From: a virus
Direction: 5' to 3' (one strand)
IMG/VR virus record: IMGVR_UViG_3300032069_000007
Location: 16,288 to 80,287 of that record
Length of the DNA: 64,000 nucleotides
Below are positions 27,261-51,829 of the stretch, piece after piece. The notes under the pieces are model-generated. The model saw nothing but the letters and a program-made list of their open reading frames with translations. It ran no database searches and was not told the DNA's origin. Position 1 is the stretch's first letter. Every line of letters begins with the position of its first letter. A program made the translations under genes and the position numbers.

Positions 27261-27541
27261 CTGTACAATATGACACTCCACCGGACATGATGCCGGAGAT
27301 CAACCGCCTTCTGGTGCTCGCCGTCGGGTCGGTGAGGAGGGCGCATTTCGCGCAGGTGTTCCGGGCCGAGGTCGGGCCGCTGTTCGAGGGCCTGTCGAGC
27401 CTCCGGTACGACCAGATCGAGGAAGCGTTCCTGGACCAGATGGAGGCGGCATTCGACCTAGCTGGCAGTGTGCGGGATGCCTTTCAACTTAGAGATCGAT
27501 TGACAGCGGAGAGTGACCCACAAGATGGCAACCGTGGTTAA
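27257..27541 (+). CDS. Hypothetical protein
   Basis: Start overlaps the upstream stop; helical composition. Confidence 0.55.
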   Translation: MTVQYDTPPDMMPEINRLLVLAVGSVRRAHFAQVFRAEVGPLFEGLSSLRYDQIEEAFLDQMEAAFDLAGSVRDAFQLRDRLTAESDPQDGNRG

Positions 27542-30500
27542 GGTCTTAGGCAGGCAGGGCAACCGGCTCAACATCGCGCGCCGGGAGTGCTCCTGCGAGG
27601 TCAAGTTGCCGTTTGGCCTGCGCTTCACCGACGGCGGCAAGATGCACCGGGTCCACGTCTGCCCGCAGTGCGAGCGCCTCCACGGGTACGAGGACATCCG
27701 TAAGGGAACCCTGCTGCGCAGTCAAGTCGTCTTCGCCCCCGGGTTGCCGCTCTTATCGAAGGCACTCGAGCTCAAGGCCGGCCAGCGCTGGGTAACGCTG
27801 CATCCGGATGCCGAGAACCCAGAAAACTACGTCCACGTCCTGATCCAAGAGCACCCCGATGGCACAGCAAGCGTCATTCGGGGAGCTGAGGGCAAGCTCA
27901 ACTACCTGCGGCTGACAAAACTCAAATCGCCGGAGGACTGGCAGGAATCCGGAAAGCGCCTTGCCGAGGAGCGCGAGAGGCGGCGGAAAGAGCGTGAGGC
28001 CGCGATGACCGAAGAGGAGCGCCAGACCACGCACGACGTAGAAGCTGGCATACTGGCCCGCAAGGAGCTGGAGGACGCCAAGTACGTATCGCAGGTGATG
28101 GAGGCGCACGGGATAGGCGAGTCCGACTGGAAGCTCGAAGAAAAGACCTTGGTAGCCCTGCCGGGGAAGTCACGCGAGATGGCCGAGAAGCAGCACCTCC
28201 GCAAGATGGTCACGGTGGCGAACAAGCTCGTGGACCGCACGCGCAAGGATCTGCTGGACGCTCACGACCGATTGGCCGAAGCCGAGCTCGGCGATATGCC
28301 GCTCGGGGACGTAGGTATCGAGCGGCCACTCGAGGGCAAAGGAAGCGGGTATATCGCCGCAGTCGAGAACGCGGCAGAGGCGGCTGGTCTAAGCGTCAGG
28401 CAGAAGATCGCGGAGAAGGAGGACATAAGCTGGAGAGGGTTCCTTGACCGAAGCGACGGCGATCCTCTCAAGGCTGCCGAGAAGCTCGCAGCGGTCCAGC
28501 GCCTGCACGCAGCGCTCCGCGAGGTTCGTGAACCGATCAAGGAGCTCAGAACCGCCGGCCTATTGGATAGGCCGCTGAAACCGGAACTTCCGCCAACCGA
28601 GAAGATCGCTGACATCCTCGTGGCGCAGAAGCAGCACACCGACTACGAGCGGCAGTACCGACAGGTGAAGGGTGAGATAGAGGAACACGGGGTTCCCAAG
28701 GCCGCTCTTGAGGTCGTGACGGAACTCAGGCCGGAGGAGGTCGAGGAGATCATCAGGGCCGCTGCCGCAAAGCCCTTAGACGAGGAAGCCGCCAAGGACA
28801 AGGTCGCCGAGGAACTGGCCGAGGATGCGATGCAGCGTGCGGCCGAGAGGCTGCTTGCGACCGCCGACAAGGAGGAGGCCCTTCAGCCACTCCGCAAATA
28901 CGTGACGATGGGGCATTACGACAGTTTGAACCGCTCCTGCCTCGCGGCAACGCGCACCCCCCTGCCCCTCGGCCGTCTTCAGGCCGACATCCTGGGACCA
29001 GAGGCCAGTGCCCAGGTGCTCGCCGCCCATCTCAGAGAAACGCTCTCGGACACGGATTACAGGGCAGCACTCCACGGCGTTGCCAACTACCATCGCAACT
29101 ATCAGCGGCAGGCAAGCGAACAGGCCCTCCAGTCGTACGCGTCGACAAAGCAGCAGGCCGACGAACTCTCCGAGCGCCCGATATCCGACATCGGGTCTCT
29201 TGTTGAGGCACAGGTTGCGAATGCCGACCGGATTGACCTCGTTGACGAGGCGCGGGAGACTCTCGGCGTGGCGCTCGGACGGCTGGAAGCTACGGCTGCG
29301 CTTGTCCAAGCGCTTGAGCTTCAACACGCACGCAAGGGAGTGCCGGAAGAGCTGCGGGTTCCGCTCGGTGCTATCTCAAATCAGCAGGCCATTGCGCAAG
29401 CGCGCGTGCTGGGACTCAGCCACCCTGTCATGGAGGAGATGGAGCCGGGGGTGGAACCCGATTACCGAATCGACTCCGACGGCGTCAACAAGTTCCTGAC
29501 TATCTTGCCGAACGGGGCAGCCAAGCTCGTGACGAAGCCCGATCGGGAGCTCGCAGAGAAGCACGCACTCGCAACCGAGATCAAATCAGGTAGGCGGGAT
29601 CAGAGGCACTGGCTCCCCGCAGGAATTGTCTCGAGGCCGCAGAGCACATTCGAGGATCCCGAGAAGCGCGCGGTGCAGTTCTCGGAACCGCTCGAACTCA
29701 GGCCCAAAATGCGGTATGCGGAGGTCAACCGCGGACTCAAGCACTATATCGCGCGGCGTCTAGCGGACGGCCAGGACCCTGAGAGCCTGCGTTCCGACCT
29801 GCTTTCGGCAGAGTTCACCGCGGACCTGCCGGACGATCTTCTGGGAGACGGCGGCGGATCCTACTACAAGGCCCTAAGCGACCTCGGCTGGTTCACCTAC
29901 AACCAGGTAGAAAACAAGTCCCCGGAGGGGCTGGAGGCCATAGCCGAACACGCAGTTGAGGAGTACGAACGCGAACACGGGGCGTCTGAGGAGGTCGCCG
30001 CCCTCAACTCGCAGTCCATCCCACTGAAAGACAGCCCGGTGTGCTACGAGGCTCTCTACAGGGCCGTTGCGGCTCACCCCGAAGCCAGGGTAGCGTTCAA
30101 GGCTCTCTCCGAGCTGACGCCGGAGGAGCGCGGGCTGATCCAGCGCTTCTTCTACCGGGTCATGACCGAGGAGAAGTCGCCCCAGGAAGAGGCTGAGGAG
30201 AAGAGGCTTACCGCAAGACCGACCCAGGCCCCGGCTAGGCAGGAGGCGCTGTGGGCCGAGCAAGAGGTGCCCGCAGAGACGACGGAGGCCCGGAAACCCG
30301 CCAAGCCAGGACGCGAGACCCCGTGGACCCGCTACGTCAAGGCGCAGGGATCTGTCCAACATGCCTATGAGAGTGTCCAGGACGTCATGAGAGGCGCCGT
30401 CTCGGCGCAGTTCGCCAAGCACATGGGAGGCATACTTGGCCGCGAGCTGAAGACCGGCAACAAGCGCATCGCAAACTGGGATGACCACCTTCTCGGGCTC

Positions 30501-33500
30501 GTTTCTCCAGAACGACAACAGCAGCTCCTGGAGGCGCGGCAGGCAGAAATGGCGCGCAAGCACGCGAGGGTCGCGACTCGCGCCCGGGGCAAGTTCGCAA
30601 CGGAGGAGCGGCTCGGCATCAGGCGTGAACGCGCGGAGGCCCTCGATCGGGCCATCCGTGGAGCTGCGCTCTCGCTGTTCAAGGAGAAGCCGCTGCCCGC
30701 GATCGAGCGGGTTACGATCGGCGCCCGGGCGGAGAAACAGCTCCAGTCCATCTTCCCCTACGTTGCCCAGAACTTTGAGGTTGACCGGCCGGTAGACATC
30801 CCTCACGATGTAAATATGAGCGAAGGTGAGATGGTAAAGCAGCAGCGCGCGGTGAAGCTGATCGAGGGCCTGAAGCGGCTTTCGCTCAACCTGGGCGTCG
30901 GCACCGGCAAGACCCTGGTCGCGTTGGGCAGCTTCTCAGACCTGCAAGCACGCGGCGCAGTCAACCGCGCCATCTTCGCTGTGCCAGCCAGCCTTACGGC
31001 GCAGTTCGGGTGCGTTCGGGGCGACACGGAACTCTGTGACCCTATCCGCGGACTCACCATGACATTTGAGGAGTGGCTGCTTTCGGGCCTGAGGCCCTTT
31101 GTCTGGACCCGGGCCGCGGGTGGACAAGTAACCATCGAACTGGCGTCTCGCCCATTCCTGAAGGGCCTTGATCGGATGTATCGCGTGGAGACGGACGATG
31201 GAGCGTCAATTGTTGTGACCGCAAAGCATCGCTTCCTTACGCCGAAGGGTTGGAGGCCGTTGTGCGAGTTGCCCGTCGGCTCGCTTGTTTCTTGCGCCGT
31301 CGCTCTGAAGCGTGCAACAAGCGATGCTCACGGTGGCTCCCGAGCAACTGGAGATTATCGATCCGGTTGTCATCCTTTTGGCCATTACGGTGATGAACGA
31401 GCTCATCCGGCTCCAGATAACGGCCAACGTGCTTTTCCATTATCAGGCGGTGCTCGAGATAGTAACCCAGTGAATTTGCCTGAGGGTGGTCCGGCACAAA
31501 CAACGCGATGTAGCCAGCAGAACGCCGAATCCGACCTCCCTTCCAGTTGTTTGCCTTTTCGCCCTTGTGACGGTTGGCATTGCCGAGTCTTGGAACGTCG
31601 AGCTTCTTCAGGCGAAGCCGAACCGCATCCTCGCTTGCGCCGTTATCCAAAATGCGGGCTATCTCCGAACACGACCGCCCCTGCTCAGCCAACTCTCGCA
31701 ACCGCTCGTCGCTCCACTCGTACCCAGGTGGCCTGCGCCCGTTCAGGCGGAGTTTCCGCATTCGACGAAGGACGGTCGCTTGTGTTGTCCCAAAGTAACG
31801 AGCCAGCCAAGATAGCGATCTCCCTTCTTGAACGAAGCGGCGGAGGTCGTTCTCATCTATGGAATGAGGTCGACGACCAGTGCGCAGAGCCTCGGAAAGC
31901 CCAAGAGCCCTCACCCGACGAGCCAAGTAGCTCTGACTCCTCCCGGTCTGCCGTGACATCCAAATGCAGGTTCGATCCTCGGCAACCCAATCCCGCAGTT
32001 GCTGATCCGGGACGGCGGCGTATTCTGGGAGACTTGGCGGAGTCAGTCCCAATTCAAGCAAGCGCCGCCGAAGCGTGTGCCGTGCAAGGCCGAATTGGCG
32101 CTCCATCCAAGCCAGCGACCTTCCCTGGCTGTGGTAGCGCCTCAATGCCGTTTCATCAACCTGTTTCGTCGGTTGGCTCATGCACCCAGTATAGCACAAT
32201 TCGCAACATCTCGGAAGTGGGGCTTGCCCTTGTCTTCGACATCGCAGTTGCACGGACACACAACTACTGGGCTGGCGGGTTCTGGAATCACAATTCGGAA
32301 GCCTTGAGGTTCTACGAACCTGGCAGGTTCAAATGGTTCGCCGACCCGACGGCCAGCGCTGAGGACCGCCGGGCCGCCTATACTGATCCCGATCGGCAGA
32401 TATGCGTTGTCACCCATCAGGCCCTCAGAGACGACCTCGTCTGGGCGGTGGGCCAGGATCGGTTCGGGGGCAATGTACGAAAAGCGGAAGACTGGATGCG
32501 TGCGGCTCCCGAGGACGAACGCAGGCACGAGGTACGTGCGGCAGCGGAGAAACAAGGGTGGAAGTGGGACATGTGTTTGCCGTACGAGGCTCCGGTGGCG
32601 ATGGCGGACGGAACAACTCGCAGGATCGGAGATCTCGTGGAATCCCGATCAAGCGATCCCGTGCTGTCACTCAACCTTCAGAGCGGTAGGTTGGAGGCCA
32701 AGTCAGTGTCCGATTGGTTGCGCTTGGAGTGCCCGCACCCCCAACTCTACCGAATCCTCGCGGGCGAAGCAAGCGTGATATGCACAGGTGATCATAAGAT
32801 ATGGACACTCGGTAGGGGGTATGTCCGCGCTTGCGAGGTGCGAGTAGGTGACCGACTTTTGGCTTTACAACCGACCGACTCTCTGCTAGAATTGGAACAC
32901 GATACCTTGAACCGGGGTGACAGAAATGGCAGTGAGGGATATGTTGGTCGGAACGCTTCTGGGCGATGCCTCGATGGGCCAGAGCGCTGCCGGGACGCCG
33001 CGAGTAACGATCAAGCACTGTCCCGCGCAAGAGGATTATCTATTCCACAAGTACGATCGACTGAGATCAATATGCCCATCTGCGCCGAAGTTCGTCAGGA
33101 ACGGGGGATGGGGCGGCGACCTCTGGGTCTTTCAGACGAGCTGCCTGGATTGGTTGCGGCAGTACCGGGAGATGATGTGGCGCGACGGGAGGCGTCGGAT
33201 TGCCGACGCCGTGAAGGATCACTTGACCCCGGAGGCACTGGGTTACTGGTATATGGACGACGGTTCGCTGTCGAACGGGTGTGCCACACTCAGCACACAC
33301 AGGTATTTGCGGGAAGATCAACGGAAGCTGCGATCTTGGATCCGCCAACTGTACGAGATCGAGGTTCTGGAACGCTACGACCGAAGGCACGACCGGTTTT
33401 ATATGGCGATGCGCAGAGAGGCGACGCGCCGGTTTGTGGCACTTCTGAGTCCCCACGTGCCGGAGTCCATGAGATACAAGCTGAATGTGCCGAATGCGGA

Positions 33501-35084
33501 GTTGCTGCCGTACATAGCGCCAACCCCGGAGGCCCTGCCGGGACGACTGTGCGTGATCTGCGGTCAGCGGTATGCCTTTCAGCAGGTCTGCGACTCTCCG
33601 GAATGCAAGCAGACCAAGAGGGACTGCGACAACCGGCGTTGGTACGACGCGCACGCTGCCGAGATCTCGGCGAGAACTCACGAGGAGCATCTGCGGAATC
33701 TCGGAGAGGGAACGTGCGAGGTGTGCAAGAGTCAATTCCTCCGCACCAGTCGCCTCCATGTACGCACGTGCTCGGCGGCATGTCGAGCGGAGTGGAAACG
33801 CCGTCGGGCCCTGGCATGGTACTACCAGAACTGCGATGCCATGAAGCACCAGTAACCTCAGTCGAGTTCACAGATGCGCCTGCGTTTGTCTATGACATAA
33901 CGGTGGAGGAGAACCACAACTTCTTCGGCTACGGCCTCCTCGTCTCCAACTGTCTTGTTGATGAGGGTCAGGATATTCTCCGCCGGCTTCATAAAGCCGA
34001 CAGCCTGATGCAGCACGCCATCGACGCTCTGTCATATCACACTCCCTATTACATCTATTCCACGGCCGACCCCGTCAAGAACGACTGGTCGGAAGTCCAC
34101 GACGTTTTGGCAAAGGTAGCACCCGACCGTTATCCCGCCGCCAGCCGGGAGGAGTTCCACCGCCGTTACGGAATCGACTGCCTCCAGACTCAGCAGGCGC
34201 TCAGACAGGAAATGCACCCATTCGCCTATGCCGAGCGTATTCCTCTGGGCATCGTGGCAAGCAGGAGGCAGGAGCCAGTGCAGCTCTCTGCCCCAGAGCA
34301 ATCCGAGTACGACGGTGTCCTCCAGGCATATCGAACCGCGCAGACGGCACGGCGCGCCGGAAAGGTAGACGATGCCGTCCCCGCGTTGCGGCAGATGAAC
34401 CCCCGTGCCTTCGAGGGCAAAAACGAAGCCGAACAGCGGACAGAGGCGGGGAGGATGTTGCAGTTCCTCTCGGCCGCCAGAGACTCCGCGCTGGACCGAA
34501 TCGTCAACGCAGGTTCGGTGCGCGGGGCAGGCGTGCGCATACCGGCCAAACTTGAAACATTGCACGCGTTCGTGCAGTCACGAATAGCAGAGAAGGGCGC
34601 TGGCCTCGTCTTCGCGCACTCGATAGAGGCGCAGAACCAGATCGCGGGATACCTCAAGAGCAAGGGGATCAAGGTGGGCACCCTCTCAGGGTCTGACCCC
34701 GGGGCGAAACGCGAGCGCACGCGCCAGGACTTTCAGGCCGGCAAGTTTGACGTCCTCTGCCTCAGCGATGCTGGATCGACGGGGCTCAACTTGCAGAGGG
34801 CCGCATTTTGCTGTAACTTCGACTCGCCGTATACGGCGAAGACCTACGAGCAGCGGATCGGCCGCATGGAGCGGCTGGGCCAGACCAACCCTGATATGAA
34901 GGTTCTGGATCTGGTTACGACCACTCCCTACGAGCGCGGCCGGAGGCGACTCCTGGAGCGCAAGGGGAAGCTGCGGGAGGCGCTGACCGCGCCTTACGAA
35001 ATGCTTGATGACACCGATTTGGGGAGAGAAATCGCTGAGGCGCGAAGCAGTGAGATCGAGAAGGCAGTACTTAAAGCCGCTTAG
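27513..35084 (+). CDS. Giant SNF2-family helicase protein containing two inteins
   Basis: LGVGTGKT (Walker A); AVPASL..QFG|SE (motif Ia, split by intein 1); M|CLVDEG (Walker B, intein 2); [22 protein letters not shown]; start may be ATG 27525. Confidence 0.9.
31237..32181 (-). CDS. HNH homing endonuclease with 4 HTH repeats, antisense inside intein 1
   Basis: [35 protein letters not shown]; NWKGGR; four LRxxxxxGRS-like HTH units; ATG 32181. Confidence 0.9.
32188..32216 (-). promoter_or_regulatory. Extended -10 promoter for the nested HNH gene (leaderless)
   Basis: TGc-TATACT (32196-32188), 6 nt, then ATG; weak -35 TTCCGA at 17 nt. Confidence 0.7.
32864..32892 (+). promoter_or_regulatory. 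sigma70-type promoter inside intein 2
   Basis: TTTACA (32864-32869), 17 nt, TGc-TAGAAT (32884-32892); SD GGGGTGA at 32914-32920. Confidence 0.75.
32926..33855 (+). CDS. LAGLIDADG homing endonuclease + Zn ribbons, in the +1 frame inside intein 2
   Basis: [11 protein letters not shown] and [11 protein letters not shown] (two-motif LAGLIDADG); CVICG, CDSPEC, CEVCK, CSAAC. Confidence 0.9.
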   Translation: MAVRDMLVGTLLGDASMGQSAAGTPRVTIKHCPAQEDYLFHKYDRLRSICPSAPKFVRNGGWGGDLWVFQTSCLDWLRQYREMMWRDGRRRIADAVKDHLTPEALGYWYMDDGSLSNGCATLSTHRYLREDQRKLRSWIRQLYEIEVLERYDRRHDRFYMAMRREATRRFVALLSPHVPESMRYKLNVPNAELLPYIAPTPEALPGRLCVICGQRYAFQQVCDSPECKQTKRDCDNRRWYDAHAAEISARTHEEHLRNLGEGTCEVCKSQFLRTSRLHVRTCSAACRAEWKRRRALAWYYQNCDAMKHQ

Positions 35085-35790: not shown

Positions 35791-36420
35791 ATGATTGCGC
35801 AGGACCCAACCCACCAATCCACGCCGCACGAGTTGTTCGACCGCTACCAGATGCTCGCCCACAAAATGGCCGGCCTCGCCAAGGTTGACCCAGAGACGAG
35901 AAGAGACCTGGACCAAGAGGCCCTGATCGCTCTCTATGAAGCCAGCCAGAAGTACGATGCCGGACGTAGGTTGCCATTCCCCAGTTTTGCGCGCATCTAC
36001 ATCCGGGGGAGGATAAATCACTATCTTCGCGACCACCTCGACATGATCCGAACGCCCTGCCGTGTCTGGGAGGGGGGCGGCCCACCAGTGCCCTGTATTT
36101 TGGAAGCCGACTACGGCTTCCAGACGCTACAGAAACAAGCAGATTTTGACGGGTACGACTGGCACCCGGGCCTCGATAATCTGCCGGACCAGGGACGGGG
36201 GCAAGTCCTCAGGGCGATAACGAGAGCTCTGGCCGCGATCCGAGTAAGCGCAGTCGACCGCCGGATACTAGCCGCAGTTTTCTTGGAGGAACGCGAGCCG
36301 GAGGAGACCGCGAAGGTCCTCGGGGTCGCTCCTCAGCGGGTGCAGGATGCCATAGACAGGCACCTCGGCAAGCTCAGATGGAGGGTGGCCCAGATGCTGG
36401 AGTTCTATGCGGCACTTTAA
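35791..36420 (+). CDS. Phage RNA polymerase sigma factor (SigB/F/G/FliA-like)
   Basis: Region 2 DLDQEALIALYEASQKYD..FPSFARIYIRGRINHYLRD; region 4 EETAKVLGVAPQRV. Confidence 0.9.
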   Translation: MIAQDPTHQSTPHELFDRYQMLAHKMAGLAKVDPETRRDLDQEALIALYEASQKYDAGRRLPFPSFARIYIRGRINHYLRDHLDMIRTPCRVWEGGGPPVPCILEADYGFQTLQKQADFDGYDWHPGLDNLPDQGRGQVLRAITRALAAIRVSAVDRRILAAVFLEEREPEETAKVLGVAPQRVQDAIDRHLGKLRWRVAQMLEFYAAL

Positions 36421-50512: not shown

Positions 50513-50711
50513 CCCTGACCGGGTAACGCTATCCGTCCAGCTGTGGCTCTTCTGGCATAGGTTTGGGGGGATCCCGGGCGATCTCTGGGATTACCCCAGA
50601 TACATCGTCGAGGAGTTTTTCGCCTTTGATGAGGCGATGGGCGACGCGTCGTCGGGACCGAAAGAGGTTCCGACAACGGAGGAGGCCAAGAGCGCGAATA
50701 GTCTGTCCTAG
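50466..50711 (+). CDS. Chaperone extension (GT-like) in the +1 frame
   Basis: LWLFWHRFGGIPGDLWDYPRYIVEEF after GAT TTT CTT C; no convincing start of its own. Confidence 0.55.
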   Translation, partial: FFALLAYDLTRGQVTNPDRVTLSVQLWLFWHRFGGIPGDLWDYPRYIVEEFFAFDEAMGDASSGPKEVPTTEEAKSANSLS

Positions 50712-51829
50712 CTGAGTGCGCTAGGTCTTGTCTCTGGCACCTTCGGGGCGGGTGCTCCGAAGTCCGAGACGTTTGGCCGGACTATTAAGGCGGCCCGGCG
50801 GATATTCTCCGCCGCGATGACATCTGCGGCCCCAGCGAGGCCGCAAGACGTGCAAAGGAAAAGACCTTGAGCCTTACGATTTCTTCTATCGATATGCCCA
50901 CAAAGAGGGCACGTGATGCTGGTGTTCCCACGGTCCACGATGACCACGGGGACTCCGACCAAGCGCGCCTTGTAGTCGATAAAGGTTTTGAGTTGCAAGA
51001 AGCTCCAGGAAGAGAACGTGTCCCGCTGGTGGCGCCTAACTGTCGTCAGAGAGCGGCGCTTGAGGTCCTCAAGCGCGATACCTCTTTTCGTGTCTTCGGC
51101 CTTGGATACTATCTTCTTGGAGATGCAGTGGTTGACATGCCTTGCGAATCGGCTCTCGTGCCTGCGGCGCTCCCGAAGGAGCCTGCGGCAGGAGAGGGTG
51201 CCTTTGCTCTGGAGTTTAGCCCTGAGCCTCCGGTGCCGTTTTCTGAGGCCGTTGACGAGCGCGCCCGAGAACATCTCGCCGTCGGAGTCCGCGGCGATCT
51301 GCTTGATGCCGAGGTCCACGCCGAGAACATCGACCGGCTCGATCGGATCGGGTTCGGGTACGTCGCAGGCGGCCAGAAGGTAGAAACAACCGTCGATCAG
51401 CGCGAGGTCGGACTCCCCGGCGCGGTACTTGAGAAGCTCGCGGTCACGGGGTCCGCAGACGAAGCGGAGGAACACCCGCCCTTCGACAGTCGATATCGAA
51501 ACCAGCCTCTTGTGGGTCAGCCAAGTCAGGCTGAGATTGTCATAGGGGATGGACCCGTGGCTCCGGAAGTTGCATTTGTGTGTGCGCCCTTTGCCGTACG
51601 CGTCGGCGACTTTCGCTATACATCGCACGGCGATGCGGGAGGGCAGTGCGAACCCCTGGCGGATGGGGCGGTAGGCTAGTCTGTGTATGGGGAATCGGCG
51701 GAATGTCTGAGCGTTCCAGGCCAGCTCGCTCGCCCAATTACAGGCGTCGTTGGCCCGCTCCAGCGTGCGTTTCAGGGCCTCGGCCTGTGCCGGGTCCGCG
51801 AGCAATTTGACCCTGGCGGTAAGCGTCAT
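50708..51829 (-). mobile_element. tnpB: IS200/IS605-family TnpB RNA-guided nuclease, no TnpA nearby
   Basis: RuvC-I LGVDLG, RuvC-II IALEDL, CPLCG..CTSCG Zn finger, RuvC-III ADVIAAENI; ATG 51829. Confidence 0.93.

Follow-up and report, generated by a model that had tools for sequence, protein, structure and literature searches.

An intein in a phage SNF2-like helicase gene with a LAGLIDADG endonuclease gene nested in its +1 frame

Can one stretch of intein DNA serve both as a protein-splicing element in the frame of its host gene and as a complete homing endonuclease gene in the neighboring frame? The question is raised by a locus in an uncultured sediment phage, known from an IMG/VR virus record of 80,287 bp that is estimated to be 93% complete. 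The window, by which we mean the whole stretch of DNA analyzed here, comprises 64 kb of this record, and counts given for it cover both strands unless stated. An SNF2-like helicase gene within the window carries two inteins, and it is the second of them, intein 2, that poses the question. We conclude that intein 2 is very probably a composite selfish element: a class 1 mini-intein on whose linker a LAGLIDADG endonuclease gene of the free-standing, I-SceI-like type has been overprinted in the +1 frame. An initial annotation of this DNA had proposed a dual-coding intein with a separate +1-frame LAGLIDADG gene. That proposal is upheld by the analyses below, and the host frame proves to be held open by selection.

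Reading frames and predicted folds of intein 2

The host gene, the intein and the gene nested within it are arranged as follows (aa, amino acids; nt, nucleotides; ORF, open reading frame; AF2, AlphaFold2).

27513-35084, + strand: host gene, SNF2-like helicase, 2523 aa, with two in-frame inteins; a single unbroken ORF, assigned with Pfam
32574-33950, + strand: intein 2, 459 codons; limits set by alignment to the intein-less P0027, P0028 and L002
32574-32888, + strand: N-terminal splicing lobe (Cys1; block B, T71..H74); AF2, Foldseek and conservation
32916-33854, + strand: host-frame filler, a stop-free disordered linker beneath the endonuclease gene; stop count and AF2
33831-33950, + strand: C-terminal splicing lobe (blocks F and G, ...HNFF...LLVSN); AF2 and conservation
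32914-32920, + strand: Shine-Dalgarno-like GGGGTGA, 5 nt before ATG 32926
32926-33855, + strand: nested homing endonuclease gene, +1 frame, 309 aa, with an alternative GTG start at 32917; PF03161 and AF2 model
33550-33790, + strand: zinc-ribbon-like repeats at the endonuclease C-terminus, two copies of CxxC...Cx4-5C; recognized by motif conservation alone

The SNF2 frame stays open through the intein, as first annotated: the 2523-codon ORF is uninterrupted from 27513 to 35084, and the helicase halves are not split by any stop or restart between them. Pfam recognizes Helicase_C and Intein_splicing in the host protein, the latter (PF14890, E-value 4.5e-20) with its best stretch at host-protein residues 1695-2146. 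Two intein-less homologs are available, P0027 (1630 aa, 97% identity) and P0028 (1624 aa, 64% identity), and alignment of the host protein to both yields exactly two precise insertions, intein 1 and intein 2. The limits first assigned to intein 2 could be verified to the residue, in that the insertion is missing from P0027, P0028, L002 and a metagenomic contig described below. Intein 2 begins with CLPYE and ends with LLVSN, followed by Cys; its site, WDM/C-LVDEGQ, lies directly before helicase motif II (DExH). Alleles without the inteins carry Ala at +1 in both places; this phage instead has Ser after intein 1 and Cys after intein 2.

The two ends of intein 2 form a predicted Hint fold. AF2 models the N lobe with a predicted local distance difference test score (pLDDT) of 94-98 over intein residues 1-100, and the C lobe with 96-98 over residues 420-459. 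Foldseek matches these lobes to mini-inteins at a root-mean-square deviation (rmsd) of 1.4-2.6 Å (1.6 Å for the Mtu RecA mini-intein). Among 40 relatives C1, T71 and H74 vary little or not at all, and H448, N449 and N459 are likewise conserved. The features of a class 1 intein are accordingly present, namely Cys1, the block B TxxH, a C-terminal Asn, Cys at +1 and the Hint fold. The segment between the lobes is of a different kind. In the host frame it consists of 12.8% R, 12.8% G, 10.2% A, 8.0% S and 7.7% P, is modeled without secondary structure over intein residues 105-418 (pLDDT 28-50), and gives no match to an endonuclease domain in a Pfam scan. Composition and Pfam thus agree with the earlier description of an Arg/Gly/Ala/Ser-rich filler of ~310 codons lacking an in-frame endonuclease.

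Read in the +1 frame, the same bases encode a nuclease. The complete two-motif LAGLIDADG protein of the initial annotation matches LAGLIDADG_2 along the full length of the profile (PF03161, positions 1-168 of 168, E-value 2.4e-28), and both catalytic Asp motifs, D17 (LLGD) and D114/D115 (YMDDG), are invariant in a 25-sequence alignment. With this alignment AF2 models a 190-residue nuclease core at pLDDT >94, and the model superimposes on I-WcaI and I-SceI with a target-normalised template modeling (TM) score of 0.76 and an rmsd of 2.2 Å. A phmmer search of the PDB with the nuclease also returns I-SceI (E-value 6e-4), and a search among longer proteins returns just distant in-frame nuclease relatives at 27-30% identity. 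The zinc ribbons that had been assigned to this protein fare less well. The Cys repeats sit in the C-terminal 120 residues, and one to four such repeats are present in L006, L008 and L009, which are also nested, a recurrence that speaks for the assignment; against it, Pfam finds no zinc-ribbon match in the nuclease C-terminus, where AF2 confidence is low.

The nested gene has boundaries of its own. Its frame is closed by a TGA at 32908, 9 nt before the GTG at 32917 and 18 nt before the likely ATG at 32926, and it ends at a TAA at 33855, just before block F. Both regulatory sequences reported earlier are present, GGGGTGA 5 nt before the ATG and the promoter-like TTTACA-17-TGcTAGAAT at 32864-32892.

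Selection on both frames and alleles without the intein

A stop in the host frame requires a T at the third position of a nuclease codon followed by AA, AG or GA. When the nuclease ORF was shuffled among synonymous codons, 8.7 host-frame stops were expected over the nested gene and none is found (p~5e-5). The avoidance is seen at the risky third positions, those of Y-ending nuclease codons before AA, AG or GA: these hold 0 T and 29 C, and the counts elsewhere are 44 T and 66 C (p 6.6e-6). In 14 distinct +1 cases taken together (13 nested loci and the window), risky sites hold 0 T and 310 C, while 781 T and 497 C are counted elsewhere (p 1e-107). The open host frame costs the nuclease protein nothing, because the change from NNT to NNC is always synonymous. 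The other frame appears to be under selection as well. GC content by codon position is 0.70, 0.43 and 0.78 in the exteins, 0.73, 0.59 and 0.48 in the filler read in the host frame, and 0.59, 0.48 and 0.73 in the filler read in the +1 frame; the filler is therefore coding-like only in the +1 frame, in which its codon-position GC resembles that of the exteins. In related pairs of loci (65-71% nucleotide identity), the nuclease frame retains 55-70% amino acid identity and the filler 32-38% over the same bases. Both frames thus appear to be under selection, and the constraint that keeps the host frame open suggests that intein 2 splices.

Such an overlap could also arise artificially, if the LAGLIDADG domain of a canonical intein truly lay in frame and had been displaced by two compensating indels, whether sequencing errors or mutations. 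Inteins of the canonical design, with a PF03161-type domain in frame, are known (P0037 and P0032), and 24 of 80 related viral loci have long ORFs in their own frame. We give this explanation almost no credence, and it is largely refuted by several lines of evidence. A Logan contig from run X1 spans 30800-34400 with one mismatch and no gaps, and so shows no sign of compensating indels; X1 is the probable source run of this DNA, but short contigs from X2, an independent sediment metagenome of a different study, also match parts of the intein interior exactly. The +1 frame has its own TGA 9 nt before GTG 32917 and its own TAA before block F, and a host frame left open by chance has a probability of ~5e-5. 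The avoidance of third-position T implies long-standing selection and not an indel artifact. The same layout recurs at 15 other loci with GC contents of 34-59%, and indels cannot yield the antisense nuclease gene of intein 1 (below).

A programmed +1 frameshift on helicase mRNA, which would produce a fusion of N-extein, Hint lobe and LAGLIDADG, is highly improbable. It would account for two ORFs that overlap on the same strand, and the private promoter is missing from most other nested loci, for which some route of translation from host mRNA is needed. Against it, the TGA at 32908 leaves 9-18 nt for the shift, and no slippery motif was noticed there, although no dedicated search was made. The nuclease gene has a Shine-Dalgarno sequence and an ATG, in many relatives the start is preceded by a GGAG-type site, and frameshifting cannot make the antisense HNH protein of intein 1.

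Alleles with and without the element occur in the sampled metagenomes. X2 yielded a 66-kb contig (depth 15.9) that is nearly identical to the phage outside the inteins and lacks both of them; this contig has 232 other letters in place of 32533-34149 in an otherwise identical background. Short contigs from X2 (depth 2-3) are 100% identical to intein interiors. The replaced letters define a tract that flanks intein 2 on both sides.

32533-32573, + strand: upstream part of the co-conversion tract; replacement in the X2 contig
33951-34149, + strand: downstream co-conversion tract, from the +1 Cys codon; drop in identity to L002, and X2 contig

Over the ~200 nt that follow intein 2, nucleotide identity to the intein-less L002 is just 53-62%, while it is ~90% elsewhere. 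The flanking difference of ~240 bases bears the signature of homing with co-conversion, and the tract includes the +1 Cys that is needed for splicing and is Ala in empty alleles. The element seems to have been mobile recently, because a near-identical phage lacks it and the flanks differ in a co-conversion-like manner. The tract also suggests that the nuclease is able to cleave the empty allele.

We propose that ribosomes on helicase mRNA would meet no stop in the nuclease gene and would translate it, in the host frame, as ~310 residues of disordered linker, and that the two Hint lobes would cut out the complete insert and reconnect the helicase at the DExH motif. The nuclease would be translated separately from its own Shine-Dalgarno sequence and ATG, probably with an extended -10 promoter of its own, and would cut the intein-less alleles of co-infecting relatives. 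Repair would then copy the element together with ~240 bp of the extein around it, and with these the change from Ala to Cys at +1.

Alternatively, the intein splices while the nested nuclease is unexpressed or inactive, a frozen relic within a decaying element. The penultimate His has been lost from intein 2, and the closest nuclease relatives are ~30-37% identical, a distance at which recent purifying selection on this copy is not measurable. We consider decay unlikely: the ORF of 309 codons is unbroken, neither catalytic Asp motif has been lost and the core folds with high confidence; the near-identical element-free phage and the co-conversion-like flank differences suggest recent mobility; the start codon of the nested gene is preceded by a promoter-like site and a Shine-Dalgarno sequence; and the nuclease frame is the conserved one in related loci.

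Several observations count against a functional composite element, in addition to the promoter counts given in the last section. At its penultimate position intein 2 has Ser458 in place of the His of its relatives, and this substitution may slow Asn cyclisation; natural inteins without the penultimate His can still splice. Helicase motif II reads DEGQ at 33951-33971, within the co-converted extein, while relatives have DEGH or DEAH. The low-depth X2 contigs bridge no intein-extein junction by 31 letters, and reach 24 letters on one side. The per-frame identity comparison covers related nested loci, the closest relatives of this element being P0039 and P0188. Finally, splicing, cleavage and promoter use are steps that we infer from the sequence.

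Nested endonucleases in viral relatives and in known systems

Viral contigs were scanned with the LAGLIDADG alignment, and the counts that follow refer to the 80 closest loci returned. In 16 of the 80, the entire match is spanned by a long ORF that lies in a different frame of the same strand. The nested nuclease occupies the +1 frame in 15 of these 16 and the +2 frame in the remaining one; an antisense frame open across the LAGLIDADG match was found in none of the 80 loci. Stop-codon depletion across homologs, which the initial annotation had put forward as a check, is complete: none of the 16 nested loci (34-59% GC) has a host-frame stop, against 5-18 expected. Their host ORFs encode large terminases, DEAD/DEAH and ResIII helicases and unknown proteins, and most show an Intein_splicing match split by 350-490 residues. 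The synonymy of T-to-C changes probably explains why +1 is the usual nested frame. The sole +2-frame nested LAGLIDADG gene, L014:2078-3091, lies inside a ResIII/Helicase_C intein and has a long N-terminal extension with Cys-rich motifs.

In a tree of LAGLIDADG sequences the nested state is clustered (6 changes versus 15.5 in shuffles) and the gene of the window falls among the nested ones; the tree is weakly resolved at depth, so that a single origin of nesting cannot be shown. A phmmer search with intein 2 found helicase proteins, P0039, P0047 and P0080 among them, that align even across the host-frame filler. Each contains GLLVYGRRF-like strings, the host-frame counterpart of the +1-frame YWYMDDG motif, and P0039 (full-length form P0188) has its intein at the same DExH site as intein 2. 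Blastn against GenBank phages gave no match to 30500-35084, scans of viral contigs with P0001 and P0027 as queries found no relative, and the scan with P0039 found a sole match, the intein-less relative L004.

Free-standing-type endonuclease genes between intein halves have a parallel in fractured genes, in which, as reportedly described by Dassa and colleagues in 2009, split inteins flank a free-standing homing endonuclease gene. The two arrangements differ in that the host gene examined here is one continuous ORF.

The novelty implied by the initial annotation does not stand, given the out-of-frame and antisense intein endonucleases of Gorbalenya 1998, Gosselin et al. 2025 and Phillips et al. 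2026. Gorbalenya 1998 and Gogarten 2002 reportedly described LAGLIDADG genes, antisense or in an alternative frame, within the intein of Synechocystis dnaX and one from Chloroflexus. Phillips, DeSimone & Gogarten 2026 (10.64898/2026.09.14.751524) report same-strand, out-of-frame LAGLIDADG genes in cyanobacterial dnaX inteins, with disordered filler, Shine-Dalgarno sequences, frame-specific omega and coexisting alleles. Intein 2 resembles these in its overlapping same-strand, I-WcaI/I-SceI-like LAGLIDADG ORF between the splicing lobes, its disordered filler, Shine-Dalgarno sequence and apparently frame-dependent selection, and the intein-free alleles found alongside. It differs in that its host is the SNF2-like helicase of an uncultured phage and not bacterial dnaX, in its zinc-ribbon-like repeats and extended -10 candidate, in the second intein with an antisense HNH gene in the same host gene, and in that no mini-intein allele was seen here.

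Among actinophages, Gosselin, Arsenault & Gogarten 2025 (10.1101/2025.01.02.630785) found inteins with antisense LAGLIDADG or VSR-like genes and with a frame-3 EndoVII-like gene, the host frame being open; they inferred that a free-standing endonuclease gene had invaded an intein and that transfer is ongoing. An endonuclease encoded antisense or in another frame, with the host frame kept open, is common to those inteins and to the present ones. The same-strand +1 LAGLIDADG and the antisense HNH are not listed there, this phage is not an actinophage isolate, and the layout is frequent among relatives in the viral contigs (16/80) rather than rare. Arsenault et al., Genes 2025 (PMC11855218) described the ShiLan element, in which the DNA methylase gene of a phage conceals an out-of-frame HNH gene, and proposed leaderless expression. 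There too a nuclease gene overlies an insertion that the host frame reads without a stop, and a +1 HNH gene in the methylase of the present phage (below) is exactly such a case, with a -10 candidate that ends 7 nt before its ATG. Unlike intein 2, which is predicted to be spliced out, the ShiLan insert has no splicing domain and stays in the protein.

What is new in the present case is its setting, a phage SNF2 gene that holds two nucleases nested in different ways; new too are the measure of how often viral LAGLIDADG relatives show the layout, the +1 bias with its rationale in the genetic code, and the private promoters proposed for selfish genes. As a phage example it is well documented, and it joins a class that has been recognised recently, that of inteins with an overlapping, separately expressed homing nuclease. 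This class looks common in environmental phages, where it is found in terminases and helicases at 16 of the 80 closest LAGLIDADG loci. Its nuclease genes are hidden from gene callers, because they lie wholly inside a longer ORF. The genetic code suggests a simple reason for the +1 bias, in that a synonymous T-to-C change removes any host-frame stop. The case also supports the view of intein origin in which the splicing domain comes first and the nuclease invades later.

Promoter-like sites and the other selfish genes of the phage

Three further selfish genes of this phage bear on how the nested nuclease might be expressed, and are listed with the intein and methylase gene that hold two of them.

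31011-32294, + strand: intein 1, 428 codons, between QFG and SEALRF; limits set by alignment
31237-32181, - strand: antisense HNH endonuclease gene inside intein 1, with ATG at 32181; the longest ORF starts from 32259
L085:1966-4314 (= G000:C1:10965-13313), upstream of the window: N6_N4 DNA methylase with a +1-frame HNH gene (HNH_2); the nested ORF is L085:2513-3226
50708-51829, - strand: TnpB gene (OrfB_IS605 / Cas12f-like TNB), a minus-strand gene in an otherwise plus-strand phage block

The antisense gene of intein 1 matches HNH_3 (PF13392, E-value 3.8e-10) and has helix-turn-helix repeats. The host frame of intein 1 over this gene contains no stop, against 7.8 expected (p~5e-5). An intein with an antisense HNH gene is a type missing from the published lists of non-canonical inteins consulted here. 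No intein surrounds the HNH gene nested in the methylase. A relative of intein 1 was observed in P0188/P0039, an SNF2 homolog 28% identical, where it occupies another position, within the Walker A loop; this suggests that these inteins switch sites within one helicase gene family.

Each of the four selfish genes is preceded by an extended -10 sequence of sigma-70-like type.

32864-32892, + strand: candidate extended -10 promoter TTTACA-17-TGcTAGAAT, score 10/12, with TG; before the LAGLIDADG gene of intein 2
32216-32188, - strand: TTCCGA-17-TGcTATACT, ending 6 nt before ATG 32181 of the intein 1 HNH gene
51867-51839, - strand: extended -10 site of TnpB, ending 9 nt before ATG 51829
Upstream of the window: TTGGCT-17-TGcTATAAT, ending 7 nt before the ATG of the methylase-nested HNH gene

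TGCTAnAnT is common to all four. The site of intein 2 is the best sigma-70-like site of its region and ends 33 nt before the LAGLIDADG ATG. For the antisense HNH, methylase HNH and TnpB genes, the -10 element lies at a leaderless distance from the ATG, and the antisense HNH mRNA of intein 1 is probably leaderless, to judge from this spacing. Just three distinct extended -10 sites occur in the 64-kb window, all immediately before the starts of selfish genes.

One reading of these sites takes in all four genes, the LAGLIDADG of intein 2, the antisense HNH of intein 1, the methylase HNH and TnpB. It combines private promoters for selfish genes, use of the host RNA polymerase independently of the phage programme, and a +1 bias that stems from NNT/NNC synonymy. 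We regard this combined reading as possible but somewhat doubtful. The total of extended -10 sites does not exceed that of shuffled sequences (3 distinct versus ~2.2), and it is the positions alone that are unusual; moreover, such a site is found in just 2 of 14 other nested loci, or 3 of 15 with the window included, where 0.49 would be expected. The claim that the nuclease has its own promoter is supported for this phage by the positions of the sites, but does not extend to the nested class. As a general property of that class, a private extended -10 promoter is ruled out by the 2 of 14 other nested loci that have one.

If true, the combined reading would mean that nested nucleases are made by unmodified host RNA polymerase, which would give the element a head start in homing on co-infecting genomes. 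It also offers a testable route of expression, from private extended -10 promoters to leaderless or short-leader mRNAs. The timing suggested at first, with an early nuclease and a late helicase, is speculation.

Directly downstream of the helicase gene, at 35791-36420, lies a phage sigma factor gene (Sigma70_r2, with a weak r4 match). Its presence fits the phage's own genes being without host-type promoters.

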